Shown here piece after piece: positions 3,300-58,300 of a stretch of DNA of 64,000 nucleotides. The position numbers and the translations under genes were made by a program. Every line of letters starts with the position of its first letter. The stretch's first letter is position 1. Source of the DNA: a virus; IMG/VR virus record IMGVR_UViG_3300050014_001197, positions 64,001 through 128,000 of that record; one strand, written 5' to 3'. Under the pieces are notes generated by a model. The model worked only from the letters and a program-made list of their open reading frames with translations. It did not search any database and was not told the origin of the DNA.

Positions 3300-3302
3300 A
3301 TC

Positions 3303-4004: not shown

Positions 4005-4693
4005 TTTAATTTAGTTGTAGGAGTTCCTCCTTCTCCCACTAAATGAATTTTTACATATTTATGAAAAAATAAATTCTCGTCATTTCTTAATTTTATGCAA
4101 TCGATTAAATTAAAAAAAGAAGAATCTATACAATGAATTTCTTTTGCTCTTTCAATCGCATAAAGAAAATTAAAAATGCTTATATCAGATCTAGTGGGTC
4201 TTATTATTTTAATATTTTTGGGAAGTTTATCTTTCAGGATTGGGCGATCTTTATCATCATGAACAAAGATATATTCTTCATTTTTCTTTAAATCTAATTC
4301 ATTAAAATATACATTTTTTTCTGCTTCGCAATTTCTTTCAACATAAAAACGATTCCATTTATCCTCAAAGTTGACATTAGCCATTTTATAAAATATTTGA
4401 TCGAATCTACCTAGCGGATCTCTTTGTAACTCCTCGTGTAATTTAGTATGGCCAATAATTAGATAGTTATTAGTTGGATTAATTTGCATGAATTGATGAA
4501 TATCCGAATCATCCATTAATATAATGGCAATTTTTGCATTATCCCTAAACATATGCATAACATTTTTAGCATTTTTGGGTTTAACAAATAAATATACTCG
4601 ATCATACATATCAGCATAAACTCTAGTCAATCCATTGCAAATAATTTGATCCCCCATACCTAAATGTTCATATATGTATATTGAGTTTTTCAC
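3983..4693 (-). CDS. Hypothetical protein in glycosylation cluster (possible glycosyltransferase)
   Basis: ORF only. No recognisable motif beyond its context. Confidence 0.25.
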   Translation of the reverse strand: MKNSIYIYEHLGMGDQIICNGLTRVYADMYDRVYLFVKPKNAKNVMHMFRDNAKIAIILMDDSDIHQFMQINPTNNYLIIGHTKLHEELQRDPLGRFDQIFYKMANVNFEDKWNRFYVERNCEAEKNVYFNELDLKKNEEYIFVHDDKDRPILKDKLPKNIKIIRPTRSDISIFNFLYAIERAKEIHCIDSSFFNLIDCIKLRNDENLFFHKYVKIHLVGEGGTPTTKLNWKVLAV

Positions 4694-5520
4694 TTTATAT
4701 ATGGTTTTGAATAAATATTCATGGATTCTTCTTCTCTTGGATCATTGTTAAAAATCTTATTTGTATTATAACATTCTAGATTAATATTCACTATCATACT
4801 AGTTTGAGATAAATTGGAAGTTCCTTTTACCAAAAATTTACAGCGAGCAAGAGCCTCCATATCTAGTATAGCTTCCAATCCTTTTATATAGCCAGATTGT
4901 TCTTTCATGTGATGATGTATGGAAATATTTCCGGATCCCCTTATTCTTGTTGTTGGAATAATTAGATTTCCATATCTTTTGATATAAAGACTATACATAT
5001 CAGCATCATCGGTAGCTAAATATATTTTATTATAAGAATTTTCAGATAATGCTTTGTCTATAACGGTAAATACTTTTTTATCATCTACCGGCCATAATCG
5101 TTTATCACTTTCGGTATATCGATCTGTTTTTCGAATATGCAAACCTAAAATAGAATTATAGTCATTGAAATATGATAATGTTTTATTAAGTATTTTTTTT
5201 GTTATCTCATTATAATGAATATATTTTGTGTATATTTCATGTAAGGTTTGGCGAATATTCATGCCAGGATATAAATCCAAAACTTGCGGCATATCTTTTG
5301 CATAAAGATACTCGATGTTTCCCTCGATGAGATCTATTTGCTGATAATAATATTCCCATACATTTGGACCTTTTATTTGATCCCAGTATAAATTAAATCT
5401 TTGCGGTAAAAAAACTCCTACCTTTTCTCCTTTAAGCTCTTTCCATTTACGCAAATCTCTAAGTACATGCCATGTTAAAACAGCGTAAAATCCGCTAAGG
5501 TCTCCAGTGATTACTTTCAT
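4690..5520 (-). CDS. Fucosyltransferase-like protein (GT11/GT23/GT65 superfamily)
   Basis: LGLHIRKTDRYTE matches the HxRRxD motif of alpha-1,2/alpha-1,6/O-fucosyltransferases. Confidence 0.45.
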   Translation of the reverse strand: MKVITGDLSGFYAVLTWHVLRDLRKWKELKGEKVGVFLPQRFNLYWDQIKGPNVWEYYYQQIDLIEGNIEYLYAKDMPQVLDLYPGMNIRQTLHEIYTKYIHYNEITKKILNKTLSYFNDYNSILGLHIRKTDRYTESDKRLWPVDDKKVFTVIDKALSENSYNKIYLATDDADMYSLYIKRYGNLIIPTTRIRGSGNISIHHHMKEQSGYIKGLEAILDMEALARCKFLVKGTSNLSQTSMIVNINLECYNTNKIFNNDPREEESMNIYSKPYIK

Positions 5521-6155
5521 TTTGTCCAGTATTTATAAGCATTAGAATAAGGGGCTCCGTGAATACCAAACGGAACAATATTTTCATCAATTATTTCTTC
5601 TTGACTAAAAGATAAAGCCATCTTTACAGAAGGGTATTTTAAGTTGGATTCCGTGTTTAATTTATTTGAATAGTATCCATCCTCATTAAAAACTAATGGA
5701 AGAGGAATCAACAGATATTTTTTACTAACAAATTCAGCTAAACTTTTGCTTCTTAAACAAAAACCCCCATTTCCTATGCCGGGGTTATTATTTTTATCTC
5801 TCATGACTAAGTCCTGCCATGGAGCTCCTATATAATCATAATTTAACCATTTATCATTCCATAATTCCGGATGAATAATATATCCATCAGGTTGAACAAT
5901 AATAAAATGAGGGGTATTTATATAACGATGAAGTTCTTTTATACAAAAAAGATTTAGATCTGCTAAACTATTTAAAGATCGGGATTTTCGTATTTCATGA
6001 ATAGAATGGGTAATGGGTTTATCCGTTATAAGCATAGATTTTTTAAATTGAAAATGACCATCTATGGTTTGTAATGTATCATCTAAAATTTTAATCATAG
6101 ACTCAACTTTAGGACCCATATTTATTGCAAGTAAAGTTACATCAAGAATTTTCAT
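5517..6155 (-). CDS. Hypothetical protein (glycosylation cluster)
   Basis: ORF only. Overlaps the start and stop of its neighbours by 4 nt, the usual operon-style coupling. Confidence 0.3.
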   Translation of the reverse strand: MKILDVTLLAINMGPKVESMIKILDDTLQTIDGHFQFKKSMLITDKPITHSIHEIRKSRSLNSLADLNLFCIKELHRYINTPHFIIVQPDGYIIHPELWNDKWLNYDYIGAPWQDLVMRDKNNNPGIGNGGFCLRSKSLAEFVSKKYLLIPLPLVFNEDGYYSNKLNTESNLKYPSVKMALSFSQEEIIDENIVPFGIHGAPYSNAYKYWTK

Positions 6156-6817
6156 GGTTTATAAATTCCGATACCACAGCTAATAGAATATACAAATTCA
6201 TGTATTTTTTTAGAAGGATCTAATTCATTCCAGAATTTCTTGACTCCCAAATCTTTATTTACAATATCGTGAAATATTAAAAATCCATTAGAATTTAAAA
6301 TTTTTAATGAATTTTCATAATCTTTTTTAACACCCTCATATCTATGATCAGCATCTATAAAAATAATATCATAAGTGTTAGTTCTGCCAAGATTAAAAAA
6401 ATCATCTGTAAAATAATTAAAATATTGGACTTCAATATTTTTAACTTTTTTAAGATATTCTACTTTATTTTGTATTGAAAAAGGCTGATCTGAAAATCCC
6501 TGAGCATTTCTCTGATAATCACAATTATCTACAGCATGACAAATTTTTATATCAGGTTGAAATAAAGAACATAATAAAAAAGATCCTCCTTGTCCTACCC
6601 CCAATTCTAAATATGATTTAGCTTTAGTCTCTTTGAGAAATAATAATAGCCTTGCATATTCTTCGGGATTCTGTTGAAGCTGTAAATTATCTTTTCCCCC
6701 TACTATTCCCGTCAATCCTCCGCCAGTAGTAGGATTAGATAAGCCAGCTGAAAATCTTATATAAAAGATTAATTCTGCTAAAGAATAAGATAACAATTCT
6801 TCGATACTTGTAGTCAT
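6152..6817 (-). CDS. Class I SAM-dependent O-methyltransferase
   Basis: LELGVGQGGSFL (motif I), DIIFIDADH...GFLIFHDI (post-I and motif IV-like). Confidence 0.6.
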   Translation of the reverse strand: MTTSIEELLSYSLAELIFYIRFSAGLSNPTTGGGLTGIVGGKDNLQLQQNPEEYARLLLFLKETKAKSYLELGVGQGGSFLLCSLFQPDIKICHAVDNCDYQRNAQGFSDQPFSIQNKVEYLKKVKNIEVQYFNYFTDDFFNLGRTNTYDIIFIDADHRYEGVKKDYENSLKILNSNGFLIFHDIVNKDLGVKKFWNELDPSKKIHEFVYSISCGIGIYKP

Positions 6818-6827
6818 TTTTATAAAT

Positions 6828-7496
6828 TTATAAGGTTTCTTGATAATATTGCATAGTATCTATTCTTGCTCTAAATTGTCCATCAATATCAGAAAGATCT
6901 GCTATTTGAAATGCAGTTAATGGCAAAAATGTATAGGATCTTAGAGTTTTATTAAGTATAATATCATTAACAGCATCATCTACTGTAGTATTAAACTTGA
7001 GCATTTCATCTGCTACTTTTTTTATTCCTGTTTCTTTAACTATATAAGCATGAGTGCAATCTGTAAAAGAAGAAGTCCAAACATGATCTGAAATCTTCTT
7101 CATTTCTGTAGGTCTTCTAATTGCTCCCCCAATAAAAAGATGTTCCCAATCTAAATTTTCTACTTCTTTTTCATAAATTTCCATTCGCTGATTAAAATCC
7201 TTTGAAAGAACAACATCATCCTCAAGCATTAAAACTTTTTTATATCCTAGAGATTTAGCCATCTTTAATCCGGCAATATGAGAAAATGCGCATGCTGCAA
7301 CATTCATATTCATTGTAGTCCAAGAAAAATAATTCCTTTTGGACGGGGTTATTTTTATATTAGCTATTAACTTTCCATCAAAAGCAGGATAAATTAAAAG
7401 ATTTTGAACTCCTCTTTTTTTGAGATGATCAATAACTCTTTTTGCTCTATCCTCTCTTCTTTCAAGATTGATTAAAATTGCAACATCGTAAAGCAT
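6828..7496 (-). CDS. GT25 family glycosyltransferase
   Basis: MLYDVAILINLERREDRAKR is the typical GT25 N-terminus (I-x-V-I-N-L-x-x-R-x-D-R). The ORF can be read up to 7625 but would then overlap the upstream gene by 125 nt, so the internal Met at 7496 is preferred. Confidence 0.55.
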   Translation of the reverse strand: MLYDVAILINLERREDRAKRVIDHLKKRGVQNLLIYPAFDGKLIANIKITPSKRNYFSWTTMNMNVAACAFSHIAGLKMAKSLGYKKVLMLEDDVVLSKDFNQRMEIYEKEVENLDWEHLFIGGAIRRPTEMKKISDHVWTSSFTDCTHAYIVKETGIKKVADEMLKFNTTVDDAVNDIILNKTLRSYTFLPLTAFQIADLSDIDGQFRARIDTMQYYQETL

Positions 7497-7500
7497 ATTT

Positions 7501-8043
7501 TTATTTATAAAATATCCAACATCCCCCAAGATATGATTGAGCTCCAAAAGAAAAATATTCATCAACAGCTTGATGAACTCCGCAGGAGGGTTCGTTATAA
7601 TCATGGCCTGCAATAATACCTCCATTTTTAATTTTAGGGAACCAGAGTTTTAAATCTGCTTTAATTCCGGAATATTCATGATCTCCATCTATAAAAAGAA
7701 AATCAATAGATTCATCTTTAAAATCCTTATGAAGTATTTTGCTATCTCCTCTAAGGGGTTGAATATAGGATTTAACTGGTTCGATATTTTTTGTAAACAC
7801 TTCATAAAGTGTTCCTGCTTTTGTATCTGGTTCATTTTCGTATCCGCATTCTCCATTGAAAAGATCAACTGTATAAAAGAGTATTTTCTTACCGGATTCT
7901 TTTATTTTTTCAGCCATATAAATGGCAGATCTTCCTTTCCAAGTTCCTATTTCAATAAAAGTCGAACCATTGCTAAATTTCTGAACCATGTTACTATAAA
8001 GAATCTGAAAGGTAAAAGACCCTTCTACATTTTCCCAATACAT
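7501..8043 (-). CDS. Class I SAM-dependent methyltransferase (Methyltransf_24-like)
   Basis: FIEIGTWKGRSAIYMA, FLFIDGDHEYSGIKADL, GGIIAGHDY. Confidence 0.55.
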   Translation of the reverse strand: MYWENVEGSFTFQILYSNMVQKFSNGSTFIEIGTWKGRSAIYMAEKIKESGKKILFYTVDLFNGECGYENEPDTKAGTLYEVFTKNIEPVKSYIQPLRGDSKILHKDFKDESIDFLFIDGDHEYSGIKADLKLWFPKIKNGGIIAGHDYNEPSCGVHQAVDEYFSFGAQSYLGGCWIFYK

Positions 8044-8047
8044 ATTT

Positions 8048-8902
8048 TTATTTTTTAACTATTTCAACTAACCATTCTTCAAAGTTGGATAAATTCCACT
8101 CCAAGCTATGTTTTTGTTCATCTGTAAATACAGGTTCTTCGTAAAAAGCTTTAAATCTCTCTGGGTTTTGATCCATTTTTTGTACAACATCAGGAAATCT
8201 CCCTCTTGTAACATCGATAAAAGCTCCTTTGTTCCAATCTTCTCCAACTCTTGGATCCCCGCAATATATTGGCATTGCACCTGCAAGAAAAGCATCCATA
8301 AGTTTTTCTGTACAATAATATCTATATGGCGTATTTTCATAAGCCATCATGAATTTATGAGGACGTTTCAAAAAGAATTCATCCTTAGCATCCCTCCAAT
8401 ATCTTCCTTCAGAGGCTTTTTGTAAAGCAAAATCATTTGTCAAGCATCGTCCATAAGATTTTATAGATTTATATTGGCTCAATTGCTGAAAAGCCGAATT
8501 TCTCATAAAATTAGAAGGATTCGAAACCGTAAATGCACACCATTGTTCAAACTGTTCTTCTTTCCGGTTCAATCGATTATAAAGTCTTTCTCTTAGCTCG
8601 GGTTTTAGTAAAATATAAACTTGCCATAGAGGTAATCTATAATTAGTTGTAGAATGAGGATCAAAACTAATACTATAATTAGTTTGAAATTGAGAAGGTC
8701 TCCAATTTTCTGCAAGTATTAAAACTTTCTTGCATTTATATTTCGGTGCTTCAACCATCTTATTAAAAATAGAATGAAATAAAACATCGGGATGCTCCTT
8801 ATCCAAAACTACTTCGAAATGGTTTTTAAGAATAGGACTTATAAAATCTTCATCTTTCCACTCAGGCCAAAAATCGGCAAACCATATTTTTAACTTATCC
8901 AT
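8048..8902 (-). CDS. GT10 alpha-1,3-fucosyltransferase-like protein
   Basis: FMMAYENTPYRYYCTEKLMDAF matches the GT10 signature F-x-L-x-F-E-N-S-x-x-x-x-Y-x-T-E-K. Confidence 0.6.
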   Translation of the reverse strand: MDKLKIWFADFWPEWKDEDFISPILKNHFEVVLDKEHPDVLFHSIFNKMVEAPKYKCKKVLILAENWRPSQFQTNYSISFDPHSTTNYRLPLWQVYILLKPELRERLYNRLNRKEEQFEQWCAFTVSNPSNFMRNSAFQQLSQYKSIKSYGRCLTNDFALQKASEGRYWRDAKDEFFLKRPHKFMMAYENTPYRYYCTEKLMDAFLAGAMPIYCGDPRVGEDWNKGAFIDVTRGRFPDVVQKMDQNPERFKAFYEEPVFTDEQKHSLEWNLSNFEEWLVEIVKK

Positions 8903-9339
8903 GGAAGAGGTTTTATTTGTTGCTGTAATGTTTCATTTTTTCCTTTTAAATATGCTGCATATTCTCTTGGAGTTTCAAATCCTGTTTTTTCTAGATGTTC
9001 TTTAGTCTTTTGCTTTTGCTCTTCTTTTTCTTTACGCCATTTTAAACCATCTTCAGTAACAACTTCTTTGACGTTTTTTCCATCGTGGATGACATACCAA
9101 TCATCGAAACATTGTTCTTTCTTATCATCAATCCACACAAATTGTCGAGTATACCAGTAAGTTTTTCCCCAACAATCACACCCTTGATCCTCATGCTCTT
9201 CAAACACAAGTTTGCAATCTTGAACTTTTTCAATTATTTCCTCTTTCATTCTTCGGGTACTACAATCCAGCATATAATATAAAATAATATAAACGGAAAT
9301 CCTGTAAATAGTGTTCCCAATACAAAAATAATTCTCCAT
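8890..9339 (-). CDS. Hypothetical protein
   Basis: ORF in the operon. Cys/His-rich (DCKLVFEEHEDQGCDCWGK). Confidence 0.3.
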   Translation of the reverse strand: MENYFCIGNTIYRISVYIILYYMLDCSTRRMKEEIIEKVQDCKLVFEEHEDQGCDCWGKTYWYTRQFVWIDDKKEQCFDDWYVIHDGKNVKEVVTEDGLKWRKEKEEQKQKTKEHLEKTGFETPREYAAYLKGKNETLQQQIKPLPWIS

Positions 9340-9437
9340 AATACTGGATCCATATTTGTATAACTACCAATACCTGCGCAAACACCAGCAATAGGGCCAT
9401 TTCCTAATCTAAATAATTTATTCATAGTTTTTTTCAT
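9246..9437 (-). CDS. PspC-domain small membrane protein
   Basis: GVCAGIGSYTNMDPVLWRIIFVL matches the PspC domain (G-x-C-A-G-L-A...D-P-T-L-V-R-L-L-F-V-L) and is followed by a TM helix. Overlaps the neighbouring ORFs; coding is supported by the motif. Confidence 0.5.
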   Translation of the reverse strand: MKKTMNKLFRLGNGPIAGVCAGIGSYTNMDPVLWRIIFVLGTLFTGFPFILFYIICWIVVPEE

Positions 9438-10152
9438 CGATTCCTAGCATGAATATATTTCCACCTCCAACCATTGGGGTTTGTCCATAATTCTTATTTT
9501 CCCCTCTTATATTCGATGTAAGCTCTTTTGTTGGAATTACAAGAGGAGGTGTTGCAATATAGAAATTAAATCCTAAATTTGTCATCATAAACAATGTAAT
9601 ACTATCTGCAATCATTGGCTGAGCATCTGCAATTGCAATATATCTTTCCATTGATCCGCGATTCATCCCATACGCAAGAATTGACCAAGAAGCAAATCCT
9701 TTTACCCATCTTGGCTTAACTCGAGTATTTTCGGGTTGAAACGCAGACATATAGGAATATAAAAGAATTCCATCTGCATCTTCTGGAATAGTATCCATAT
9801 ATTTCGGAAGCAGGGTTTCCCAATTCTTGGAAAATGCGCAATCATCTTCAAATATAAAAAGACTTTTAACTCCTTCAAGCAAAGCTGTTTTAATTACATG
9901 ATAATGAGATTGTAATGCTCCGAGTTCATTTGGAAAAGCAGGATTAAACCGAACTTTCCTACCATCTGGAGAATTATATTTTACGTTATAAGGTTCTATA
10001 AGAGCTTTTGCATATCCTGGAATAACAGGACGAAAGAATTCTGCTTCAATATCATGAGTTTCAAATTGAAAATGCATATAATCAAATTTGTCTTCTCGTT
10101 CTTTTAAAGATATACAAACTACTTTTTCGTATTTTTCATTAATTAAGCTCAT
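9418..10152 (-). CDS. GT25-like glycosyltransferase
   Basis: VVCISLKEREDKFDYM at the N-terminus (GT25-like) and FIFEDDCAF (DxD). Confidence 0.5.
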   Translation of the reverse strand: MSLINEKYEKVVCISLKEREDKFDYMHFQFETHDIEAEFFRPVIPGYAKALIEPYNVKYNSPDGRKVRFNPAFPNELGALQSHYHVIKTALLEGVKSLFIFEDDCAFSKNWETLLPKYMDTIPEDADGILLYSYMSAFQPENTRVKPRWVKGFASWSILAYGMNRGSMERYIAIADAQPMIADSITLFMMTNLGFNFYIATPPLVIPTKELTSNIRGENKNYGQTPMVGGGNIFMLGIDEKNYE

Positions 10153-10502
10153 ATATGTAATATGTTTTTGATAACTTCCGGATATTTATCCAGGATTCTT
10201 TGTTCAAGCCAATAACAATAAGAAGCTTCATAGATATTTTGAATCCCCCATTGATAATATTTTCTACGTCCACTTTTATAATAGGATTTCTTTTTTGCTT
10301 GATAAATCGGAGCATGATGATTTTGAAATTGATATGCTCGCTGAATCCACCGGGGATTTCCAGCATGTTCTTCTAACCATTGACCATATTCTGAAGTTGG
10401 ATGTCCATGGTTTAAAACTTTTTGCATCCAATAATCATAAGACCACATTGGCAAACTACCAGTGTCCATATGAAAAGCAAATCTTAAATCTGTTTCTGTC
10501 AT
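10149..10502 (-). CDS. Hypothetical protein (first gene of the minus-strand glycosylation operon)
   Basis: ORF only. Confidence 0.3.
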   Translation of the reverse strand: MTETDLRFAFHMDTGSLPMWSYDYWMQKVLNHGHPTSEYGQWLEEHAGNPRWIQRAYQFQNHHAPIYQAKKKSYYKSGRRKYYQWGIQNIYEASYCYWLEQRILDKYPEVIKNILHI

Positions 10503-10583
10503 ATTTTAAATATTATAATTTCTAATAAAATCATCTATGTTATTGTGTTTGGATATTATATCAGCAAATTTAAAATAGTTTCA

Positions 10584-10610
10584 CAAAAAAAGGAGAAATT
10601 TCTCCTTTTA
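10584..10610 (-). terminator. Rho-independent terminator (minus strand) downstream of 10608..11057
   Basis: Palindrome GGAGAAATTTCTCC followed on the minus strand by TTTTTTTG. Confidence 0.65.
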
Positions 10611-11057
10611 ATACATTTGAACATCATATAGTAATCCATCTAGCATTTCTTTAAACCAATTTGGATCGGGTTCAAATTTTTCCATGAATATAATATAATT
10701 TCCAATCACATCATCTATATCAATATAATTATTATCTTCTCTTACTTTGAAAATAAGATTTTTTACAAATATTCTAGCTTCCGGATTAGAATAGAAACTC
10801 CTATCTGTTCGTTTATCTGCTTCATCAAAATGTTTATTAAATGCACTACTTAATTCTTTTCCGGCTTTTGGATCTTCTTTTCTTCCAGTTGTCCAACGAG
10901 AAAGTTCTTCCAAATCAGATTTTGTTTTTTCCAATTCCTCCTGGCCTATACCAGCTTCAAGTAATCTTTTTTGGACAACATCGGACATCCCTATCCTCAT
11001 ATTTTTAAGAGGGTCTTCACCCCCTCTTTGAAATTCTATAGATTCTTTTACGATCAT
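10608..11057 (-). CDS. Leader-motif family protein (N-terminal MIVKESIEFQRGGEDPLKNMRIGM)
   Basis: Member of the ESLNFERG leader family at the far left of the window. Confidence 0.6.
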   Translation of the reverse strand: MIVKESIEFQRGGEDPLKNMRIGMSDVVQKRLLEAGIGQEELEKTKSDLEELSRWTTGRKEDPKAGKELSSAFNKHFDEADKRTDRSFYSNPEARIFVKNLIFKVREDNNYIDIDDVIGNYIIFMEKFEPDPNWFKEMLDGLLYDVQMY

Positions 11058-14604: not shown

Positions 14605-15309
14605 ATGTCCGGAACAAAAATTATATCATTAGAGGAGTTTGAAAAAAAACTTAATGAGGATTTTTACAATCCATTTGATGAAGAAGATAAATTTAAGAAA
14701 AAAGAACCCCAACAGGTAAAAGATTTTGGGGGATTTTTTAAACTTAAAAAGGAATCTTTTAATCTGGGAAGAGTAGAATATTCTAAACGTCCCGGTGGGG
14801 ATTATACTATTATGGGAAAAACTCAATTTGCCAAAGGGGAAGTTGTAGAAATTTGCCCGGTAGTTCTTGTTGGGGAAATTGCTAAAACCATTGAAAAAGT
14901 TAAGGATCTTATTTTTGAACTTGATAAAAATAAGGGTCAATGGGGTCTTGTTTTAGGATATGGCTCTCTTTATAGGCATTCGGATAAACCTAATTTAGAT
15001 TATGCTTATAATCCAAAAAGTCGACAAATGTATTTTATAACAAATCGTCCTATTAGTATGCACCAAGAACTTACTATTAACTACGGATCTGATTATTGGG
15101 CAGAAAGAACAAACTTTAATACAGTTGCTGAAATACCAGGTGCTAATCAAGGACTTGAACCAGCTCCAAAACCTGAGAATGAAAGTGCAGTACAACCAAA
15201 TTCTACTGATATAGATGCAAATGCAACTAAAATGGCTTTTGGACAACCAAATGCAACTCAGAATCCAGCGGTATCGGGGATACCCATTCAAGGTATAGGA
15301 CAACAATAA
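14605..15309 (+). CDS. SET-domain protein lysine methyltransferase
   Basis: LYRHSDKPNLDYAY (N-H-S-C-x-P-N-type motif) and ELTINYG (E-L-x-x-x-Y), with an upstream GEVVEICPVVLV beta-strand region. Confidence 0.7.
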   Translation: MSGTKIISLEEFEKKLNEDFYNPFDEEDKFKKKEPQQVKDFGGFFKLKKESFNLGRVEYSKRPGGDYTIMGKTQFAKGEVVEICPVVLVGEIAKTIEKVKDLIFELDKNKGQWGLVLGYGSLYRHSDKPNLDYAYNPKSRQMYFITNRPISMHQELTINYGSDYWAERTNFNTVAEIPGANQGLEPAPKPENESAVQPNSTDIDANATKMAFGQPNATQNPAVSGIPIQGIGQQ

Positions 15310-15318: not shown

Positions 15319-15690
15319 ATGACAGACATTAAACAAATAAAAATTTCTCTTATGGAAACTCGAGGGGAAGTAGATCCTTCTACTGGAAAGAATGATTATA
15401 TTATAAAAACGTCGGGATCTTTTCAATTTAACGCATATGTAGAAAAAACTGAAGCAAACGAAAAAGATAGATTACAAATTCTTAAAGAAGCTTCTCAATT
15501 AATCTATCAGGATCTTATAGAAAAAACGAAAGATGAATTTGATAGTGTTGGAGTTTGGCTTACAGTAGGAGAAAAAGATTATGAAAATTCTATGACTATA
15601 TCAGCCTTAGAAGGAATTCAACAATATGGGGAAAAAGGAATTATTCCAATTTTCGAGCTAATTAAAATGTCTATTCCAATCAATGAGTGA
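15319..15690 (+). CDS. Hypothetical protein
   Basis: ORF only. Confidence 0.35.
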   Translation: MTDIKQIKISLMETRGEVDPSTGKNDYIIKTSGSFQFNAYVEKTEANEKDRLQILKEASQLIYQDLIEKTKDEFDSVGVWLTVGEKDYENSMTISALEGIQQYGEKGIIPIFELIKMSIPINE

Positions 15691-16420
15691 TATTGGTCTT
15701 AGAGATGAATTATATATGGTTGATCCTGAGGGTAAACTTGAGAAGATGGATCCGAATACCCATCATCTTGAATATCTTATGAACTTTTTTCCTGATGAAG
15801 AAGATTATAATGAAGATTTTTGGGATACAATCTTTGATGGCGGATGGATTAGAATTGAGTTAAAAGAAAATTCTCGAAATGGATGGGATCTTGCTGTAAA
15901 TGGCAAAAGTCTTTATAAGATGAAAGCTATCGTTAGAGATAAATTTCTTGAAAGATTAAAAAGAGGAGAAAATAAAGTTCATATTGAAGAGTGGACGGGT
16001 ATTGGAATGAATCCTACTAAGAATTTTTATCTTCCGATGCAAAAGGAAGAATTTTATGATTTCATTTTAGAAAAACTCCAAGCAAAATTTGTTTATGAAT
16101 CTCTTGATTTTGAAAGAGGATTAGAGTCTAAAGCATCAATGGGCATTGGTAAAAAAGCTCAACTTAAAAAATTGGACCAAGAAACAGATTGGGGATTTGA
16201 AATCCCTGCTGTTTTTGATAGAGTTATGTGGGATATTATTAATTATAATAATCATTTGATTAAAATTACTAAAGTATCTGGTTCAGATGGAATTGGTTAC
16301 TATATGGCTCTTAATAATTCAGGAGAACCTTATAATAGTACCCCTCCGGTGTATCCTACTCCAGAAGAAGCTCTAGATTGGGAACAAAAATATTTAGATC
16401 AATATGATATGGGACTTTAA
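15683..16420 (+). CDS. Hypothetical protein with an internal leader motif (ESLDFERGLESKASMGIGKK)
   Basis: Motif at residues ~130-150. Confidence 0.45.
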   Translation: MSDIGLRDELYMVDPEGKLEKMDPNTHHLEYLMNFFPDEEDYNEDFWDTIFDGGWIRIELKENSRNGWDLAVNGKSLYKMKAIVRDKFLERLKRGENKVHIEEWTGIGMNPTKNFYLPMQKEEFYDFILEKLQAKFVYESLDFERGLESKASMGIGKKAQLKKLDQETDWGFEIPAVFDRVMWDIINYNNHLIKITKVSGSDGIGYYMALNNSGEPYNSTPPVYPTPEEALDWEQKYLDQYDMGL

Positions 16421-16437
16421 AACTAGTCCCTTTTTTA
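16411..16437 (+). terminator. Rho-independent terminator
   Basis: GGGACTTTAAAACTAGTCCC followed by TTTTTTAG. Overlaps the stop codon. Confidence 0.7.
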
Positions 16438-16472: not shown

Positions 16473-16685
16473 ATGAATCAATTAACAGATAAAGAAAAAG
16501 CTGAACTTAAGTTCCATCTTATTGGGGTTATGGATAAATTTCTTGAAGATGAAACTAAAGAAGATAATAATATTGGATGGATTCCAAATAATCTTGAAAA
16601 ATATATGGCAGATGCAGCATTTGCTGTACTTGAAAGCATAAATCAGTTAAATTATTTTTTAGATAAAGAAGAAATAATAAAATAA
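16473..16685 (+). CDS. Hypothetical small protein
   Basis: ORF. Confidence 0.3.
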   Translation: MNQLTDKEKAELKFHLIGVMDKFLEDETKEDNNIGWIPNNLEKYMADAAFAVLESINQLNYFLDKEEIIK

Positions 16686-16691
16686 ATTAAT

Positions 16692-16973
16692 ATGGAAGGA
16701 ATAGTATTACCAGCAGTTATTACTTACATCCAAAGTAAAAAAATTGGGGATCTTATCTATAGACAAGATCTCATAAAATTAAATGGAAGATGGACGGGAG
16801 CTTCTACCGCAGATAATTATAGAAATTATCTTACACATGCAGGATACTTAAGAACAAAATACTCTGGGGCATATGAATACATGAAAAAAATTCCAAAAAA
16901 TATGTCATATGCTCAATTAGTAAAAGAAGCATATCCTGAATCAGAATGGACCCAAAAATATAAAATAATATGA
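16692..16973 (+). CDS. Hypothetical small protein
   Basis: ORF. Confidence 0.3.
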   Translation: MEGIVLPAVITYIQSKKIGDLIYRQDLIKLNGRWTGASTADNYRNYLTHAGYLRTKYSGAYEYMKKIPKNMSYAQLVKEAYPESEWTQKYKII

Positions 16974-17656
16974 CAACAAAATTGCCAAAATCAAGAAAAG
17001 AGCTTATAGAGCTTATGGAAGGATATGCAACAGCTATTCAATGTGATCCTGAATATTCCGGCAGAAATGCAGAAAATTTTCTTAAATATAAAGAAGATCC
17101 TAAGATTGAATATAAAGAACCGATTAAACCTAAACTTATCCCAGTTAAATCAAATCATTTAACAACTGATCATAATGACCCTAAATTAAAAGAAGGTCAA
17201 AAAAATGAAACCGGACAACATGAAATTTATTTAGTTCTTTCAGAAGAAGAAAGAGCAAAAGGATTTGTTCGCCCTGTAAGAAATTCTTATATCCATGTTG
17301 GTAGGATACACAATTATGCGGGCATAGATAAAATGCTTACAGAAGAAGAAAAACAAGAATTTCATGAAAAATATCCGGAAGATAAAAATAAGAAATATGT
17401 AGCAATTCTAGGTATAAATGGAACTGATGGGAAACATCTTGGAGGAGCTTATGTAACTCAAAAAGAATTTGATGCTTGGAGATTGGGCAATAAACTTGGC
17501 GGTTGTGGAACTACAACGACTATGGGAAATGCGCTTTCTGAAACATATGCAAGAAATCCAAAATTTTATGGAGCAACATTTTGCTGTGGCTGCAATAAAC
17601 ATTTACCAGTTGAGGAATTTGTGTGGGAAGGAACAGATAAATTAGTAGGATCCTAA
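16970..17656 (+). CDS. Hypothetical protein (Cys-rich C-terminus GGCGTTTT...FCCGCNKH)
   Basis: ORF. Confidence 0.35.
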   Translation: MTTKLPKSRKELIELMEGYATAIQCDPEYSGRNAENFLKYKEDPKIEYKEPIKPKLIPVKSNHLTTDHNDPKLKEGQKNETGQHEIYLVLSEEERAKGFVRPVRNSYIHVGRIHNYAGIDKMLTEEEKQEFHEKYPEDKNKKYVAILGINGTDGKHLGGAYVTQKEFDAWRLGNKLGGCGTTTTMGNALSETYARNPKFYGATFCCGCNKHLPVEEFVWEGTDKLVGS

Positions 17657-17729
17657 ATATTTTTCTTATTGAATCAAAACTTTTTAAGATTTAATACGTA
17701 AAACATATAAACATTTAATACATAATCTA

Positions 17730-18662
17730 ATGATTTGCATTGACGGACCAGATGGAGGAGGTAAAAGTTTCTTGGTAGAATATATTAAGTCCCATTCTCA
17801 AATTCCGGTGGTTAAACCATTTTATCCTAAACAAAATCAGCTTAGTTATTATCTTCATTCCCCAGCTCATTATGCTCCTTTTTATCTTGAAAGATATTAC
17901 ACGAGCGAGCTCGTATACCCTCAATTTAAAGAAGGAAGGGATCAAATGCAACCTTGGCATCAATATCTTATTGAAGCAGGTTTAATGCCATTTGCTCCAG
18001 TTATTCTCTACCTTCGCCCTACCAAAGAAACCATATTAAAAAATATCCATGTTCGTGGGGATGATTATGTGAAAATTGAAGAAATTGATCAAATGATCCA
18101 TTTCTATGATGCTGTCATGGAAGATACTTATGTTCCGGTTTTTACTTATGACTATAAGCAAAATAATATTGATACTATACTTAAAGTCATAGAAGATATT
18201 CATCGAATGAGACAGGAAAAAGCTGTCAGACTTCAAAAATTTCTTTCTACAGGAAATTATTACGAAGAAGGATGCATTATGTTTATTGGGGATATGCCAA
18301 GTAATTATTCAATTGGTAAAGGATTTGTTCGTGCATTCTCAAGTAATACTGGATCTTCAGAATTTTTTCATCATTGCTTATTTGATGCCGGGGTTTATCC
18401 TACTAAGCAAATGCCATATTTTACAAATTGGAATAAATGTGAAGGCAACAGAGAATTAAATGCCAAAGCACTAAAAGAAGAATATGAAATAATTAAACCT
18501 CGAAAAGTTATTTGTTTGGGGAAAGAGGTTCGAGAACAAGTTGGCTTTGGAGAAACTATTTATCATCCTGCTTATATAAAACGCTTTAAGAAAGTTCAAT
18601 ATAATGAATATATTCAGCAATTAAAAGAAATTATGGATTATCCAATAAAAGAAATAAAATAA
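17730..18662 (+). CDS. Fusion of a P-loop dNMP/thymidylate-kinase-like domain and a UDG-superfamily domain
   Basis: N-terminal ICIDGPDGGGKSF matches the thymidylate kinase E-G-x-D-G-x-G-K-S/T-T P-loop. The C-terminal domain has MFIGDMPS (the G-E-A-P-G-like motif A of family 4/5 UDGs) and YHPAYIKR (the H-P-S/A motif B). Confidence 0.45.
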   Translation: MICIDGPDGGGKSFLVEYIKSHSQIPVVKPFYPKQNQLSYYLHSPAHYAPFYLERYYTSELVYPQFKEGRDQMQPWHQYLIEAGLMPFAPVILYLRPTKETILKNIHVRGDDYVKIEEIDQMIHFYDAVMEDTYVPVFTYDYKQNNIDTILKVIEDIHRMRQEKAVRLQKFLSTGNYYEEGCIMFIGDMPSNYSIGKGFVRAFSSNTGSSEFFHHCLFDAGVYPTKQMPYFTNWNKCEGNRELNAKALKEEYEIIKPRKVICLGKEVREQVGFGETIYHPAYIKRFKKVQYNEYIQQLKEIMDYPIKEIK

Positions 18663-18664
18663 GA

Positions 18665-19423
18665 ATGAATACACGTGATGAATTAAGAAAAGCTTTCGAG
18701 ACCTTAAAAAGCAAAGGAGAAATTGTAACTTCAGAAAAATGGCAAGCTACCACTCCTCCTGACGCTCTTTTTGAAATCATTAATTATAATTTCAAAATTA
18801 CTAAAATGCCAGAAAGCCAGGATGAACTCAAAAGAGAAACAAAATGCGATTATCCTTGGTCTGAAGATCATTTTCAAGAAAGGATTGCTGGGGAACCAAC
18901 AAATCCTGGAGTTGAATATCTAAATTGGCCTTATTATACTCCAGAAAAACATGATGGGGTTTTCCGAGCTGAAGGGGAACACTTTTTCTCTCATACTTAT
19001 CAAGAAAGATTTTGGCCAGATAAAACTCTCAAAGGAACTGGCAAAATGGGATATAACTTTGGGGATTTTAATGATTTAATTACAAGATTAAAAAATGATC
19101 CAGGGGGGAGACAGGCTTTTTATGCTATTTGGCATCCTCAAGATTCTGCAGAAAATGGGGTTCGCCTACCCTGTACAATTGGTTATCATTTTTTAATACG
19201 ACGAGGAAAATTGAATATGACTTATCTTATTCGAAGTTGCGATATTCGTCGTCATTTTAAAAATGATATGTATATGAGTATTAGACTTGGCCAATATGTT
19301 AGGGATCAGGTTGATAAAGAGCTTAAAATGGGGGAATTCTTTTGCTGGCTTGGAAGTCTCCATTGCTGGGATGGTGAAAAACTAATGTTAGACTCAGATA
19401 TACAAAAATTCGATACTTTTTAA
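18665..19423 (+). CDS. Thymidylate synthase (ThyA)-family pyrimidine methylase/hydroxymethylase homologue
   Basis: GRQAFYAIWHPQD matches R-R-x-I-x-S-A-W-N-P-x-D, and LPCTIGYHFLIRRGKLNMTYLIRSCDIRR matches L-P-P-C-H...K-L-S-C-Q-L-Y-Q-R-S. The active-site His and Asn neighbourhood diverges (PCT instead of PCH). Confidence 0.6.
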   Translation: MNTRDELRKAFETLKSKGEIVTSEKWQATTPPDALFEIINYNFKITKMPESQDELKRETKCDYPWSEDHFQERIAGEPTNPGVEYLNWPYYTPEKHDGVFRAEGEHFFSHTYQERFWPDKTLKGTGKMGYNFGDFNDLITRLKNDPGGRQAFYAIWHPQDSAENGVRLPCTIGYHFLIRRGKLNMTYLIRSCDIRRHFKNDMYMSIRLGQYVRDQVDKELKMGEFFCWLGSLHCWDGEKLMLDSDIQKFDTF

Positions 19424-19424
19424 T

Positions 19425-19682
19425 ATGAGTAGAGTTAAATATGAAAATTTTGAAAAAGGGGAAACTCGAGAGCAAAAGGCCTTTGAGGTAAAACTTGGGA
19501 AAATTATTTTGGTAGAAGATATAACTCTCGGTGGATATACTGCTTTTTTTAAACCAGATTATGGAATTATTAGCCAGGGAGAAACAAAAGAAACAGCAAT
19601 AATTAATCTTTTGGATACTTTTAATACAACCCTAATAACAGATAACATAAAATTAAATATAAAGAAAATTTTGCCAAAATGA
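19425..19682 (+). CDS. Hypothetical protein
   Basis: ORF. Confidence 0.3.
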   Translation: MSRVKYENFEKGETREQKAFEVKLGKIILVEDITLGGYTAFFKPDYGIISQGETKETAIINLLDTFNTTLITDNIKLNIKKILPK

Positions 19683-20362
19683 CAGCACAATACGGAACAA
19701 AGGATTTAATGAGAATCCTGGATATTCAGAAAAAATCCGATGGGGATCTTTATGAAGCTTTTAAATTAGCTGTTCGAATGGCCGGCGAAATAGAAGAACC
19801 AGGTAAAGCTTTAGCTCGAGGATATGCATCCATAGAAGTTTATAAGAGTCTTTATTCTCCTATTGCAGGAGTATTTTTTACAAGAGCTTGCGATTTAAGT
19901 GGGGAAAATGATATTCGAAATATTCGAATAATGGCATCAATGAATTCTGTAGGAGATGATGAAGAAGCTATTGAAGTCGCATTTAGCAGAATTCCTATTG
20001 AAAAACAACCTGCAAGTCGAAGACCAGTAGAAGCTCGTGATACAGCATATAATTCTAATAAAATAGGGTATTCTAGTATTACTTCTTTAGCTAAAATCAA
20101 TGTTGTAAAAGGAACAGGTCCAGGATTTGACTTAAAAATTATGAAAAACGGAACTGTAGAAGTTTGGAAAAATCCCGAGCAAAAAATTCGTCTTATTTAT
20201 ACTGGTAGTTCAGTTCCTCTTTCGGGAATACATGATCAGAAAGATTTCAAATTTGATGGAAAAAGAGAAACCTGGACAATGGTTGATTATATAGAGGTTT
20301 ATAATATGATGAATTTACAACCTTTATATGGTACGTCTATAACAGGATTTATGTACAATTAA
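19679..20362 (+). CDS. Hypothetical protein, paralogue of 42914..43732
   Basis: Shared N-terminal G-x-K-D-L-x-R, EPGKALARGYASIEVY vs DPGKAQARAEAAIEVF, and a shared C-terminal beta-rich segment. Confidence 0.4.
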   Translation: MTAQYGTKDLMRILDIQKKSDGDLYEAFKLAVRMAGEIEEPGKALARGYASIEVYKSLYSPIAGVFFTRACDLSGENDIRNIRIMASMNSVGDDEEAIEVAFSRIPIEKQPASRRPVEARDTAYNSNKIGYSSITSLAKINVVKGTGPGFDLKIMKNGTVEVWKNPEQKIRLIYTGSSVPLSGIHDQKDFKFDGKRETWTMVDYIEVYNMMNLQPLYGTSITGFMYN

Positions 20363-20372
20363 TAACTAAATA

Positions 20373-21500
20373 ATGGCTGAACCAAAACATTTAAATTTAA
20401 TTCCGATTGATCATATAGTTCAATCAAGACCTAATATTCCAAGCGATTATCATTGTACTTGTCCATATTGCCAAAATTTTATGGGAGAGATTTATAATGT
20501 TGAAAATGACAAATATTATAGCAACCGTATTCGTAGAGGATATTATATTGATCAAGCTGGGGATCATTTAGATGCTGGTCATATTATTGGATATAAATGG
20601 GCTGTTCAGAATCTTTGCCCAAAAGGGGGATTTGTTTTTGATCCAACCGTAGGGACTGGAACAGCTATTATTGAAGCTATTCTTAATGGAAGAAATGGAA
20701 TTGGAATAGAACTTGAATATCCTGAGGTTGCTCAAAAGAATATTGATAATCAATGGAATTTAAATCGTGTTCCACCTGGGGTAACCTCTTATTTTCGTCA
20801 AGGAGATGCTACGAAACTTGATGAATATTTCAAGGAATGGGGATTCAAAGAACCTTTCTTAGATCTTATCATTAATGGAACTCCTTATCCGAAAATTTCA
20901 GGTAAAAGCTCTGATGCACCAGAAAGAAAAAATCTTGCCACAAAAGTAGATAAGAGTTTTGATTACATGCATGAAGATAATATAGGCTTGACCAAGGGAA
21001 ATGCCTATCATGATCTTGTGAAAACTATGTATACAAAAGCCATTAGATTTCTTAAACCTGGTGGATATTTTGTTATCATTATAAAAGATCTTGTTCAGAA
21101 TAAAGAACCCTATCTTTTACATAAAGAAATTATAGATATTGTTATAGAAAATAATCCGGATATGGTTCCATATGGATTCTTTCTTCATAAGCATATTCCC
21201 ACAACTATGTTCATTAATACTTATCTTAAGAGATTTCCCGGGATTCAGATTCCTCTTTATCAAGCAGGAATCGTTTTAAGAAAGAGAGGAAATTTTTTAG
21301 ATCCTGGATATCCTGTTGAATATCCCAAGGTTATAAGAGAAATTAATCCTTTAGATAAAAAAATTAATCCTATAAAAAAATCAGTTCCGATTGCCGAATT
21401 ACATGATCTTGGATATCAAGCAGGATTAAGGGAGGGTTATAATGAAGCCATAAAGGATTTTATGGAATTTTTAAAAAAAACCAAAAAGTGGAATTATTAA
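20373..21500 (+). CDS. ParB-N-domain / DNA (N6-adenine or N4-cytosine) methyltransferase fusion
   Basis: LNLIPIDHIVQSRPN (ParB/Srx-like), FVFDPTVGTGTA (motif I) and a downstream NGTPYP (DPPY-like motif IV). Confidence 0.55.
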   Translation: MAEPKHLNLIPIDHIVQSRPNIPSDYHCTCPYCQNFMGEIYNVENDKYYSNRIRRGYYIDQAGDHLDAGHIIGYKWAVQNLCPKGGFVFDPTVGTGTAIIEAILNGRNGIGIELEYPEVAQKNIDNQWNLNRVPPGVTSYFRQGDATKLDEYFKEWGFKEPFLDLIINGTPYPKISGKSSDAPERKNLATKVDKSFDYMHEDNIGLTKGNAYHDLVKTMYTKAIRFLKPGGYFVIIIKDLVQNKEPYLLHKEIIDIVIENNPDMVPYGFFLHKHIPTTMFINTYLKRFPGIQIPLYQAGIVLRKRGNFLDPGYPVEYPKVIREINPLDKKINPIKKSVPIAELHDLGYQAGLREGYNEAIKDFMEFLKKTKKWNY

Positions 21501-21511
21501 AATAAATCAAA

Positions 21512-21844
21512 ATGGAAAAAGAAAGGATTGAACAATCTCTTCTGAAAATGGGATACAGGGAACTCAAACAAGGAATTTGGGCTAAACCTGTTGCATTCCA
21601 TTTATTTTTATTTGAGATGGATAAAATGTTATGGACTAATTTCTTCAGAGGAACAGAAAATACAATGTGTATTTGGAATACCGAAACTTATAAAGAAGAT
21701 GATTATAAGATAAAAGATAGTAATATTTCTGCTTTCTTATCGTTTTTAAAATATACAGAACAATATACGAGAATTGACACAAGAAATGTAGATTCGGAAT
21801 TTGAGTTTTTTACGGAAAAAGAAATATATAAACAACTTTTATAA
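21512..21844 (+). CDS. Hypothetical protein
   Basis: ORF. Confidence 0.3.
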   Translation: MEKERIEQSLLKMGYRELKQGIWAKPVAFHLFLFEMDKMLWTNFFRGTENTMCIWNTETYKEDDYKIKDSNISAFLSFLKYTEQYTRIDTRNVDSEFEFFTEKEIYKQLL

Positions 21845-21845
21845 T

Positions 21846-23204
21846 ATGTGTGGGATTATTATAAGTCCGGACAGAAACAAAATTGATTCGATAAAGCATC
21901 GAGGAATACAATTTACATCTATAGAAAAAGATGGATGGGTTTATGGTCATCATAGACTTCCTATTCAAACTCTCAAAGAAGATAAATGGTTTCAACCAAT
22001 TAATTTGCATGATGGATTTCTTCTTTTTAATGGGGAGATTTTTAACTGTAATGAAATCACTGGAGAGGAATGGGAAAATGATTCCCAATATCTTCAAGAT
22101 TTTTTCGATAATGACGAACCAATAGAAAAGAAGCTCAAAGAAATAAACAAATGGGATGGATTCTGGAGTATCGTTATCGTTAGAAAAAATAAAGTTATTA
22201 TCTTTACAGATCCTCTTGGTAAAAAACAGCTTTATATTAATAAGATAACTGGAGAAGTATCCAGCGAAGTTAAGGGATTAAGCAATTCCAAAATCATTGA
22301 TCCCATTTTCATAAGCATCGTCAATAAATGGGGATACAATACAGATAATAGAACTCTTTATGAAGATGTTCAGAGAATAATGCCTAACAGCATTTATATT
22401 TGGGAAAAAGGAAGAAATATAGCACCTCGAATTATCGAAAATTATTTTGATTGGAATAGCAATGTACCTCTTGATTCCATTCATGATCTTATTGAAAAAT
22501 CTGTTCAAAGAAGATTACTTACTAAAAAATATAAAGTATCTACATTATTTTCAGCAGGATTAGATAGTATGATTATTCTTTATTTCTTAAAGAAATTTGG
22601 AGCAGATGTCAATATCTATTCTATCAATAATGCTGAAGACGGAGTGTTTGTTCAATCAATCCAGAATAAATGGGGGTTAGATATAAATTATCTTGATGTT
22701 AAACCCGAAGAACTTTCATTAGTTGAAAAAATGAGAATTTATGATATAAATGATTCGATGATCGACCTTGGATCAGTAATTCCTCAATATTATCTTTTCA
22801 AAGACATTAAAGATAAAATTGTTTTAACTGGCGATGGAGCAGATGAGCTCTTTGGGGGATATAGAAGAATAAGTGAATATGATTCTCAAAAGAGTGATGT
22901 ATTCCAAGAACTTCCTTTCTATCATATGATTAGAATCGATCGTATGAGTATGAATTTTACAATTGAATGCAGGAATCCATTTTTAGGACACGATGTTGTA
23001 AGAGCAGCTTTACAATTGCCCTATTCGGAAAGAACTCATAAAAAGATTCTTAAAGATGAATTCAAAGGATTAATTCCGGATGAAATAATTGAAAGAAAGA
23101 AAAATCCTTTAAAAATCAGTCAGATACGAGAAAATGAAACAAAATATAGAAGAGAATTAATCGAAAATTATATTAATTGGAAAAAAATAAATGGAAGCAA
23201 ATAA
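21846..23204 (+). CDS. Asparagine synthetase (AsnB)-like glutamine amidotransferase
   Basis: The N-terminal MCGI (Cys2 Ntn nucleophile) sets the start at 21846, although the ORF opens at 21801. The PP-loop SAGLDSMII matches S-G-G-L-D-S. Confidence 0.6.
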   Translation: MCGIIISPDRNKIDSIKHRGIQFTSIEKDGWVYGHHRLPIQTLKEDKWFQPINLHDGFLLFNGEIFNCNEITGEEWENDSQYLQDFFDNDEPIEKKLKEINKWDGFWSIVIVRKNKVIIFTDPLGKKQLYINKITGEVSSEVKGLSNSKIIDPIFISIVNKWGYNTDNRTLYEDVQRIMPNSIYIWEKGRNIAPRIIENYFDWNSNVPLDSIHDLIEKSVQRRLLTKKYKVSTLFSAGLDSMIILYFLKKFGADVNIYSINNAEDGVFVQSIQNKWGLDINYLDVKPEELSLVEKMRIYDINDSMIDLGSVIPQYYLFKDIKDKIVLTGDGADELFGGYRRISEYDSQKSDVFQELPFYHMIRIDRMSMNFTIECRNPFLGHDVVRAALQLPYSERTHKKILKDEFKGLIPDEIIERKKNPLKISQIRENETKYRRELIENYINWKKINGSK

Positions 23205-58281: not shown

Positions 58282-58300
58282 TGTAGTTCAAGTTTTATTT

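Follow-up and report, generated by a model that had tools for sequence, protein, structure and literature searches.

A candidate pre-replicative cytosine-modification cassette in a T4-like phage: a divergent thymidylate synthase homolog, a kinase–uracil-DNA glycosylase fusion and an AsnB-like partner

Pre-replicative cytosine modification of the kind known from phages T4 (gp42 with gp1) and Xp12 uses a homolog of thymidylate synthase (TS), and a few residues of such enzymes, numbered here as in E. coli ThyA, follow substrate and product. Asn177 goes with a uracil substrate, and Asp at the same position with a preference for cytosine, that is for dCMP (PMC13326640; PMC8670742; bioRxiv 10.1101/2024.12.05.627091). 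Leu143 accompanies methylation and Asp or Glu there accompanies hydroxymethylation, an S/T-x-Y motif being part of the latter signature, and the T4 D145N mutant is inactive; hydride transfer takes place in a site closed by the C-terminal tail, which the dCMP hydroxymethylase of T4 lacks (PMC6400193). D169N is the marker of 5-hydroxy-dCMP synthases. A neighborhood of dCMP deaminase, TS(N177D) and PolA is reported to be strongly enriched in modified-cytosine metavirome contigs (70% versus 6%), and 5 of 7 TS homologs from it made 5-methyldeoxycytidine (5mdC). Here we describe a locus in IMG/VR record IMGVR_UViG_3300050014_001197 (positions 64,001 to 128,000; this whole 64,000-nucleotide stretch is the window), where a TS homolog gene (18665-19423) lies between a gene for a kinase fused to a uracil-DNA glycosylase (UDG) fold (17730-18662) and one for an AsnB-like enzyme (21846-23204). 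The window is AT-rich (~31% G+C) and amounts to about half of a T4-like myovirus contig of 132,831 bases; absences reported below apply to the window alone. We put at an even chance the reading that these genes form a pre-replicative cytosine-modification cassette of the T4/Xp12 kind, made of unusual parts. The reading proceeds from folds, motifs, residue signatures and gene associations to predicted substrates, a predicted product and predicted catalytic steps.

The initial annotation of this DNA placed the 18665-19423 product in the ThyA family, and our searches agree. It matches Pfam Thymidylat_synt (E=5.5e-9), and its AlphaFold model (pLDDT 88) superposes on the whole E. coli TS fold (TM 0.69, ~248 columns, Foldseek) and also covers the whole MilA fold (TM 0.69); profile-profile alignment to TS extends over residues 113-245. 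Five residues (C170, R190, S191, D193 and D201) are invariant in a 34-member alignment. The first four are the equivalents of Cys146, Arg166, Ser167 and Asp169; the fold, the catalytic Cys, the Arg/Ser pair and the folate Asp of ThyA are kept. The fifth occupies, ungapped, the position of Asn177, the residue that reads O4/N3 of uracil.

The divergent active site suspected in the initial annotation can now be specified. Besides the replacement of Asn177 by Asp, the hydrophobic Leu143 has become an invariant Arg (R167), three residues before the Cys; His147 is Thr here and Thr or Ser across the family; and the protein ends 19 residues after the His207 equivalent (12-21 in the family, 57 in E. 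coli, 63 in Xp12). The equivalent of Tyr94 sits in an invariant H-T-Y (H110-T111-Y112). An enzyme that retained all canonical TS residues and complemented a thyA mutant had been named as the sign of an ordinary dTMP-synthesis gene; Asn177, Leu143 and the tail are not retained. Searched against the PDB, the family profile found best the CMP hydroxymethylase MilA (1e-9), the N229D mutant of L. casei TS, and 9iqu/9iqc, each with an Asp that aligns in register with Asn177.

We checked the residue rules on controls with our own alignment, which reproduced the published classes. Written as residues 143/177, E. coli ThyA is L/N, the dUMP hydroxymethylase gp58 of phage M6 is D/N, the 5mdCMP synthase of Xp12 is N/D with a full tail, and the TS homologs of phage G (gp319) and Actinomycetia phage DSL-LC01 are D/D. 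The window family is R/D and tail-less. Because of the invariant Asp at the Asn177 position its members are predicted to be cytosine-type, and by signature they fit none of the known makers of dTMP, 5-hydroxymethyldeoxyuridine (5hmdU), 5mdC, 5-hydroxymethyldeoxycytidine (5hmdC) or 5-hydroxydeoxycytidine (5hodC). We rejected a 5-hydroxy-dCMP synthase identity, D169 being retained. The product is not predictable from current residue rules. The enzyme is not an ordinary thymidylate synthase, and a non-canonical pyrimidine in the phage DNA is a reasonable prediction.

The best cultured-phage matches (30-37% identity) are proteins called thymidylate synthase in mycobacteriophage Muddy and in many Gordonia, Serratia, Yersinia, Brevundimonas and Pseudomonas phages. 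The family forms more than 100 clusters in metagenomes, and the subclass was found in 131 records of cultured phages and in no fewer than 287 IMG/VR loci. Loci compared with the window carry L numbers. Muddy gp46 (L001, KF024728.2, 4980-5753), annotated 'thymidylate synthase', has Asp at 177, Arg at 143 and no C-terminal tail, and its homologs in many Gordonia, Serratia, Yersinia and Pseudomonas phages bear the same label. Judged by these residues, the label is probably wrong for the whole Muddy gp46-type family.

Those labels are nevertheless a point for a serious rival, to which we assign clearly less than an even chance: ordinary nucleotide metabolism serving canonical DNA. Under it, dTMP would be made directly, or from dCMP by way of 5-methyl-dCMP and deamination; the kinase would be a thymidylate kinase and the UDG a plain repair enzyme, and the AsnB-like protein would be an asparagine synthetase, an auxiliary metabolic gene product. 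Depositors label genes of these kinds thymidylate synthase and thymidylate kinase, and in Muddy the gene has a thymidylate kinase, a dUTPase and PolA as neighbors. Neither the invariant Asp at Asn177 nor the absence of the tail is a feature of a dUMP methylase. The enzyme is, moreover, probably not a source of dTMP, because one carrier, the siphovirus-like L027, has ThyX as well as the R/D gene, and a different contig, L013, has two R/D paralogs. L013 is a 58.5-kb marine phage contig whose two different Arg143/Asp177 paralogs lie at 2496-3386 and 10001-10735; it also carries a C5 DNA methyltransferase, a dCMP deaminase, a dUTPase/DCD-like gene and a UDG::PolA.

If the genes do form a cytosine-modification cassette, Cys170 would attack C6 of dCMP while Asp201 reads the N3/N4 edge of cytosine, and a one-carbon unit would pass from methylene-tetrahydrofolate to C5 by way of the retained Asp193. 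The intermediate would more likely be captured by water or another nucleophile than be reduced; capture by water, giving 5-hydroxymethyl-dCMP, is favored because the tail is missing and the pocket is polar. We would rank 5-hydroxymethyl-dCMP first among the candidate products, 5-methyl-dCMP second and something new third.

The open reading frames and motifs listed in the initial annotation were recovered where it had placed them. The genes of the region are as follows.

16970..17656, + strand: gene of no family with a Cys-rich C-terminus; sub-threshold KilA-N match only
17730..18239, + strand: YorR/thymidylate-kinase-like deoxynucleoside monophosphate (dNMP) kinase domain, residues 1 to ~170 of the fusion; GPDGGGKS, E54-R55-Y56, R109-G110-D111
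18243..18662, + strand: family-4-type UDG domain of the fusion; G187-D188-M-P190-S, N233 (FTNWNK), H279-P280; no Fe-S cysteine set
18665..19423, + strand: TS-fold enzyme of the predicted cytosine-type subclass; C170, R190/S191/D193, D201, R167, H110-T111-Y112, no C-terminal tail
19425..20362, + strand: two genes of no family (85 aa, 19425-19682; 227 aa, 19679-20362) between the TS-like gene and the methyltransferase gene
20373..21500, + strand: S-adenosylmethionine-dependent amino-methyltransferase-like protein; partial N6_N4_Mtase match, no ParB domain
21512-21844, + strand: gene of no family in Pfam, PHROGs and NCBIfam searches
21846..23204, + strand: compact AsnB-family glutamine amidotransferase/adenylating enzyme, 452 aa; Cys2, SAGLDS, GDGADELFGGY

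The gene upstream of the TS homolog does encode two joined domains, as had been proposed. The N-terminus matches the dNK and thymidylate kinase families and PDB entry 2axp (YorR, E=8e-8), residues 183-297 match Pfam UDG above its curated cut-off (E=6e-6), and the model of the fusion is confident (AlphaFold pLDDT 92). The kinase fold is present, with the P-loop GPDGGGKS, an E-R-Y variant of the thymidylate-kinase DRY motif and the lid Arg. The second domain has the fold, motif A (G-(E/D)-x-P), uracil-recognition Asn (N233) and motif B (H-P) of family-4 UDGs; it lacks their four-cysteine Fe-S cluster, its sole Cys (C237) not being conserved in the family. In phages phiLo and YerA41 the polymerases excise dU ahead of the fork, with catalytic residues E53, P55 and H178, and the UDG domain of phiLo PolA is active by experiment (bioRxiv 10.1101/2025.03.26.645540). 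These residues correspond in the window to D188 (a position that is Asp or Glu across the family), P190 and H279.

A profile of the fusion, searched against 1.84 billion representatives, gave 337 matches at E<=1e-10, and full-length kinase-UDG fusions made up 121 of the 148 best of these. The kinase::UDG architecture is a large family, not a rare one. Among the 121 fusions K12 is retained in 119, R55 in all 121, G187 in 114, Asp or Glu at 188 in 108, N233 in 82 and H279-P280 in 112. Because the catalytic motifs are kept across such diverse fusions, both domains look catalytically competent. As part of a cassette, the kinase domain would convert the modified dNMP to the diphosphate, with host nucleoside diphosphate kinase and phage polymerase finishing the job, and the UDG would be an active glycosylase that clears dU from replicating phage DNA. 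A YorR/thymidylate-kinase-like kinase is listed with a TS homolog in the cytosine-hypermodification clusters of DLP3 (gp78), RB69 (gp45) and RL38J1 (gp214). In other cassette phages the UDG is instead fused to PolA, which would tie nucleotide supply and uracil exclusion to the replisome.

The initial annotation had assigned the fusion another role, modeled on thymidine hypermodification: the UDG fold would flip a 5-hydroxymethyl-pyrimidine in DNA and the kinase would phosphorylate it in the manner of 5-hydroxymethyluridine DNA kinase (5-HMUDK), with group transfer and amidation to follow. We find this very improbable, and it is the least supported reading. The joining of a kinase to a base-flipping fold is suggestive, and 5-HMUDK fusions with other hypermodification enzymes exist in metaviromes (PMC8989533). 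The kinase domain, with its dNMP-kinase motifs and fold, gave no BLASTP match to the 5-HMUDK of M6 (gp54) even at E<=10. For the group-transfer step, the window had no significant match (all E>0.1) to M6 gp51, gp52, gp53 or gp54, and none to the M6 aGPT-Pplase/AADT, pyridoxal-phosphate or radical-SAM enzymes. The UDG keeps the residues that are catalytic in the active phiLo PolA UDG, and a cytosine-type TS homolog would not make 5-hmdU. Of the hypermodification module originally proposed, the non-canonical pyrimidine is still a reasonable prediction and, as described next, the AsnB-like and TS-like genes do seem linked; the thymidine route does not fit, and the gene at 16970-17656, which had been included, falls outside the cassette.

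The AsnB-like gene was correctly recognized by its MCG N-terminus and SAGLDS motif, and only its start needs moving: the true initiator is the ATG at 21846, not 21801, giving MCGII. The protein matches Pfam Asn_synthase (7e-34) and GATase_7, as well as human ASNS (8e-11) and E. coli AsnB (1e-8), and has Cys2 and the SAGLDS PP-loop. It is shorter than E. coli AsnB (452 versus 553 aa) and scores 174 bits against TIGR01536, under the equivalog cut-off of 267. Almost no homologs occur in cultured phages. Its relatives in metagenomes keep particular company. The AsnB-like protein retrieved 80 IMG/VR loci; in 53 of them a TS homolog lies within 7 kb, and all 53 homologs are of the Arg(-3)/Asp177/short-tail class. 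The pairing is found in 8 of 12 AsnB clusters (70% identity), with either gene first. In L025 and L027, which represent an unrelated, siphovirus-like lineage, an AsnB-like gene (47-50% identical) lies less than 1 kb downstream of an R/D tail-less TS homolog, with dUTPases flanking the pair. Around the TS homolog of Muddy, no AsnB-like gene was seen within 5 kb.

The reciprocal search, with the TS-like family, retrieved 80 IMG/VR loci (L109-L188; 33 clusters at 60% identity). By cluster the commonest neighbor is dCMP deaminase (25 of 33), followed by the kinase (12) and the AsnB-like gene (7). Taken as a descriptive count over loci, 23 have the AsnB-like gene only, 40 the deaminase only, 7 both and 10 neither, an odds ratio of 0.076. 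Where present, the AsnB-like gene shares the strand of the TS-like gene and lies within 2 kb of it (30 of 30 cases); it follows at a median distance of 806 nt, in the slot held elsewhere by the deaminase. It does seem linked to the TS homolog as a recurrent same-strand partner.

These counts bear on ordinary nucleotide metabolism from both sides. The prevalence of dCMP deaminase beside the TS-like family is what that explanation would expect, and in Xp12 thymidine is supplied by deamination of 5-methyl-dC nucleotides; the Xp12 route, though, also puts 5-methylcytosine into DNA. The AsnB-like protein finds its best matches among true asparagine synthetases, and the window proteins are 6.1% Asn in an AT-rich genome. 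Median G+C is 31% for the AsnB flavor of the TS-like set and 42% for the deaminase flavor; for the AsnB/TS-like pairs of the AsnB set it is 49%. Because pairs occur at ~49% G+C, the pairing is not just an effect of AT-rich genomes, and asparagine supply for such a genome is weakened as a role. The shared strand and the short distance likewise argue against free-standing asparagine supply.

If instead the cassette modifies cytosine, the AsnB-like enzyme may act at the same pyrimidine-nucleotide node, catalyzing an ATP- and glutamine-dependent amination or amidation, and its step may replace or oppose that of the dCMP deaminase that other lineages have in this slot. PP-loop enzymes such as GMP synthetase, TilS and QueC adenylate ring carbonyls or carboxylates before amination. 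A bolder alternative is that the TS-like and AsnB-like enzymes make up an undescribed two-enzyme route to a new cytosine derivative that this phage and many others would carry in their virion DNA, with either an aminated or amidated C5 substituent or a ring amination that amounts to an ATP-driven reverse of dCMP deaminase; the methyltransferase and a nearby glycosyltransferase island might elaborate the product into hypermodified virion DNA. The exclusive pairing with one TS subclass in 8 of 12 clusters and both orders, the anti-correlated use of the deaminase position, the general PP-loop chemistry, an Arg143 with H-T-Y that resembles no class of known product, and eight glycan-synthesis genes 8-15 kb upstream of the cassette are consistent with it. 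We consider it improbable all the same, less so than the flipped-base scheme and more so than ordinary metabolism. AsnB-type enzymes normally need a carboxylate, which one-carbon transfer to C5 does not supply. The methyltransferase and glycosyltransferases are tied to the cassette only within this lineage, and GT10, GT25, GT47 and NodZ-like enzymes, here beside a capsid gene, are typical of glycan or protein glycosylation.

Several points weigh against a cytosine-modification cassette as such. The T4 hydroxymethylase signature (Asp or Glu at Cys-3 with S/T-x-Y) is replaced here by Arg and H-T-Y, and the lack of an acidic residue speaks against the T4 mechanism. By profile methods the protein aligns to TS over residues 113-245 only, and equivalents of Arg21 and Glu58 were not located. 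No dCTPase, dCMP deaminase or dihydrofolate reductase (DHFR) was seen in the 64-kb window; a dCTPase, a deaminase or a second TS may lie in the other half of the contig. Four of the 12 AsnB clusters, in T4-like contigs, have no TS homolog nearby, and the loci behind the association counts were ranked by similarity, are partly redundant and are not independent, so that the counts are descriptive and carry no phylogenetic correction. The searchable literature shows no experiment on any member of the TS subclass and reports no modified DNA in its cultured carriers (Muddy, many Gordonia phages); it also has nothing specific on PMBT14, on actinobacteriophage modification or on TS/AsnB pairing.

We examined the arrangement of the cassette genes in other lineages. 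Genes for the fusion, the TS homolog, the methyltransferase and the AsnB-like enzyme are all retained in close relatives (L002, L004, L007, L014-L016), but the place of the TS-like gene shifts: in L002, as in the window, it is next to the fusion, whereas in L004, L007 and L029-L031 its neighbor is the AsnB-like gene. Identities to the window are mosaic: L002 is 88% identical in the TS-like protein and 63% in the fusion, L004 64% and 80%. These identities, together with the different position in L004 and L007, suggest that the TS-like gene has been exchanged independently of its neighbors. In L004 (12957-13178) and L007 (7770-7985) a mini-protein of 71-73 aa with a biotin/lipoyl-attachment domain is encoded right after the TS-like gene, and L004 has a nucleoside 2-deoxyribosyltransferase-like gene at the same place; the window has neither gene. 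Biotin-dependent carboxylation was set aside, the window having no gene for such a mini-protein. An NDP-sugar epimerase/dehydratase gene is found just upstream of the kinase-UDG gene in relatives.

More distant carriers of the fusion combine it with D/D-type TS homologs. In Bacillus phage G the fusion (gp315) is beside an alpha-glucosyltransferase, a dCMP deaminase and a D/D-type TS; DSL-LC01 has, in order, the fusion, a D/D-type TS, a deaminase and a short PolA; and a 305-kb contig (L019) has the fusion, a D/D-type TS and a deaminase. Stand-alone kinases occur in L013, L008, L017 and L018, where the UDG domain is at the N-terminus of PolA. Every TS homolog adjoining the kinase or kinase-UDG has Asp177 (window relatives, phage G, DSL-LC01, L017, L018 and L019). 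The loci of phage G (L009, 3826-9562) and DSL-LC01 (L010, 5995-8329) thus bring together the fusion, a dCMP deaminase and a TS with the full T4-type dCMP-hydroxymethylase signature (Asp143/Asp177). In phage G the alpha-glucosyltransferase and a sugar-nucleotidyltransferase lie nearby, and this gene set suggests DNA containing glucosyl-hydroxymethylcytosine.

The gene at 20373-21500 had been described as a ParB-N DNA methyltransferase, a description that our searches do not bear out. Pfam, PHROGs and NCBIfam gave no ParB domain, and N6_N4_Mtase matches only a 38-residue motif-I stretch (residues 78-115, 35.7 bits). The motif order is Trm14-like, with a non-canonical 'NGTPY' and weak TIGR01177/Trm14 matches. 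Related contigs keep the protein at 68-78% identity. The supposed absence of restriction targets was also contradicted: GATC occurs 288 times against 295 expected, and the median observed/expected ratio over six-base palindromes is 0.94.

Closely spaced + strand genes run from 16473 to 23204. A terminator-like hairpin precedes them at 16411-16430 (+ strand; GGGACT...AGTCCC followed by a T-run), directly after the gene at 15683-16420, and the transcription unit of the cassette may begin there; a promoter scan was uninformative (36 sites versus 38 expected). The same three family searches placed neither 16970-17656, 19425-19682, 19679-20362 nor 21512-21844. The first of these is absent from L002, L004 and L007 and is lineage-specific. 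The 227-aa protein is present among relatives only in L004 and the 85-aa protein in none, and these two variable genes are probably outside the cassette.

The phage type is apparent from genes for a Gp23-type capsid protein, a gp6-like baseplate wedge, a gp5-like OB domain and lysozyme; beyond the window on one side there are structural genes only. A megablast of the region against cultured phages gave no match and hence no close cultured relative. The glycan-synthesis island (1935-10152, - strand) adjoins the Gp23-type capsid gene (30-1145). Its eight genes encode a GT47/exostosin-like protein, a NodZ/FUT8-like fucosyltransferase, a DUF5672 protein, two Methyltransf_24 sugar-O-methyltransferase-like proteins, two GT25 proteins and a GT10 alpha-1,3-fucosyltransferase; possible roles are glycosylation of the capsid or of DNA and modification of the host surface. 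The gene at 14605-15309, a few genes upstream of the cassette, encodes a SET-domain protein (PF00856, 1.9e-9) kept at 63-83% identity in L002 and L004. On the - strand, 56662-61700 encodes a MoxR/AAA_5-type ATPase (56662-58281), ankyrin-repeat proteins (58301-59020 and 59017-59943) and a 585-aa protein matching the PHROG 'HNH endonuclease' family phrog_1314 (1.6e-60).

Should the product be a modified cytosine, a widespread family now labeled 'thymidylate synthase' would mark phages with non-canonical DNA, among them the therapeutic mycobacteriophage Muddy and phages of Gordonia and Serratia. Modified DNA would affect their sequencing and engineering, their evasion of restriction and CRISPR, and their host range. 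The active-site combination is new and outside the published rules for product prediction. The kinase::UDG and UDG::PolA fusions look like a Rosetta-stone pair connecting dNTP supply, uracil exclusion and the replisome, and the AsnB-like gene, anti-correlated with dCMP deaminase, may mark an unrecognized step in phage pyrimidine metabolism.

Among described systems, T4 gp42/gp1 shares with the window the TS fold, the Cys nucleophile, Asp at 177, the folate Asp, the lack of a tail and an adjacent or cognate dNMP kinase. It differs in having Asp/Glu rather than Arg at Cys-3 and S/T-x-Y rather than H-T-Y, and its kinase is gp1-like, whereas that of the window is YorR/thymidylate-kinase-like and fused to a UDG; a dCTPase was not seen in the window. 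Xp12 likewise has a cytosine-type TS (Asp177), and elsewhere the window's TS family is mostly found beside dCMP deaminase and PolA. Xp12 has Asn143, a 63-residue tail and an adjacent DHFR, in contrast to Arg143, no tail and an AsnB-like gene in place of deaminase or DHFR in the window. The 5-hydroxy-dCMP synthase clusters of RB69 and DLP3 resemble the window in their cytosine-type TS and in the YorR/thymidylate-kinase-like 'nucleotide kinase' listed with them; the RB69 gp48 type has D169N, while the window enzyme, like all members of its family, keeps Asp at that position (Asp193).

The remaining comparisons are with thymidine-modifying phages. In M6, ViI, SP10 and PhiW-14 the pathway also starts from a TS homolog and includes a P-loop kinase, but M6 gp58 is uracil-type (D143/N177, versus R143/D177 here) and the M6 5-HMUDK has no similarity to the window kinase. 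YerA41 and phiLo (SP15-like) have an active UDG fused to PolA and modify thymidine; in the window the UDG is carried on a dNMP kinase, next to a TS homolog of predicted cytosine type.

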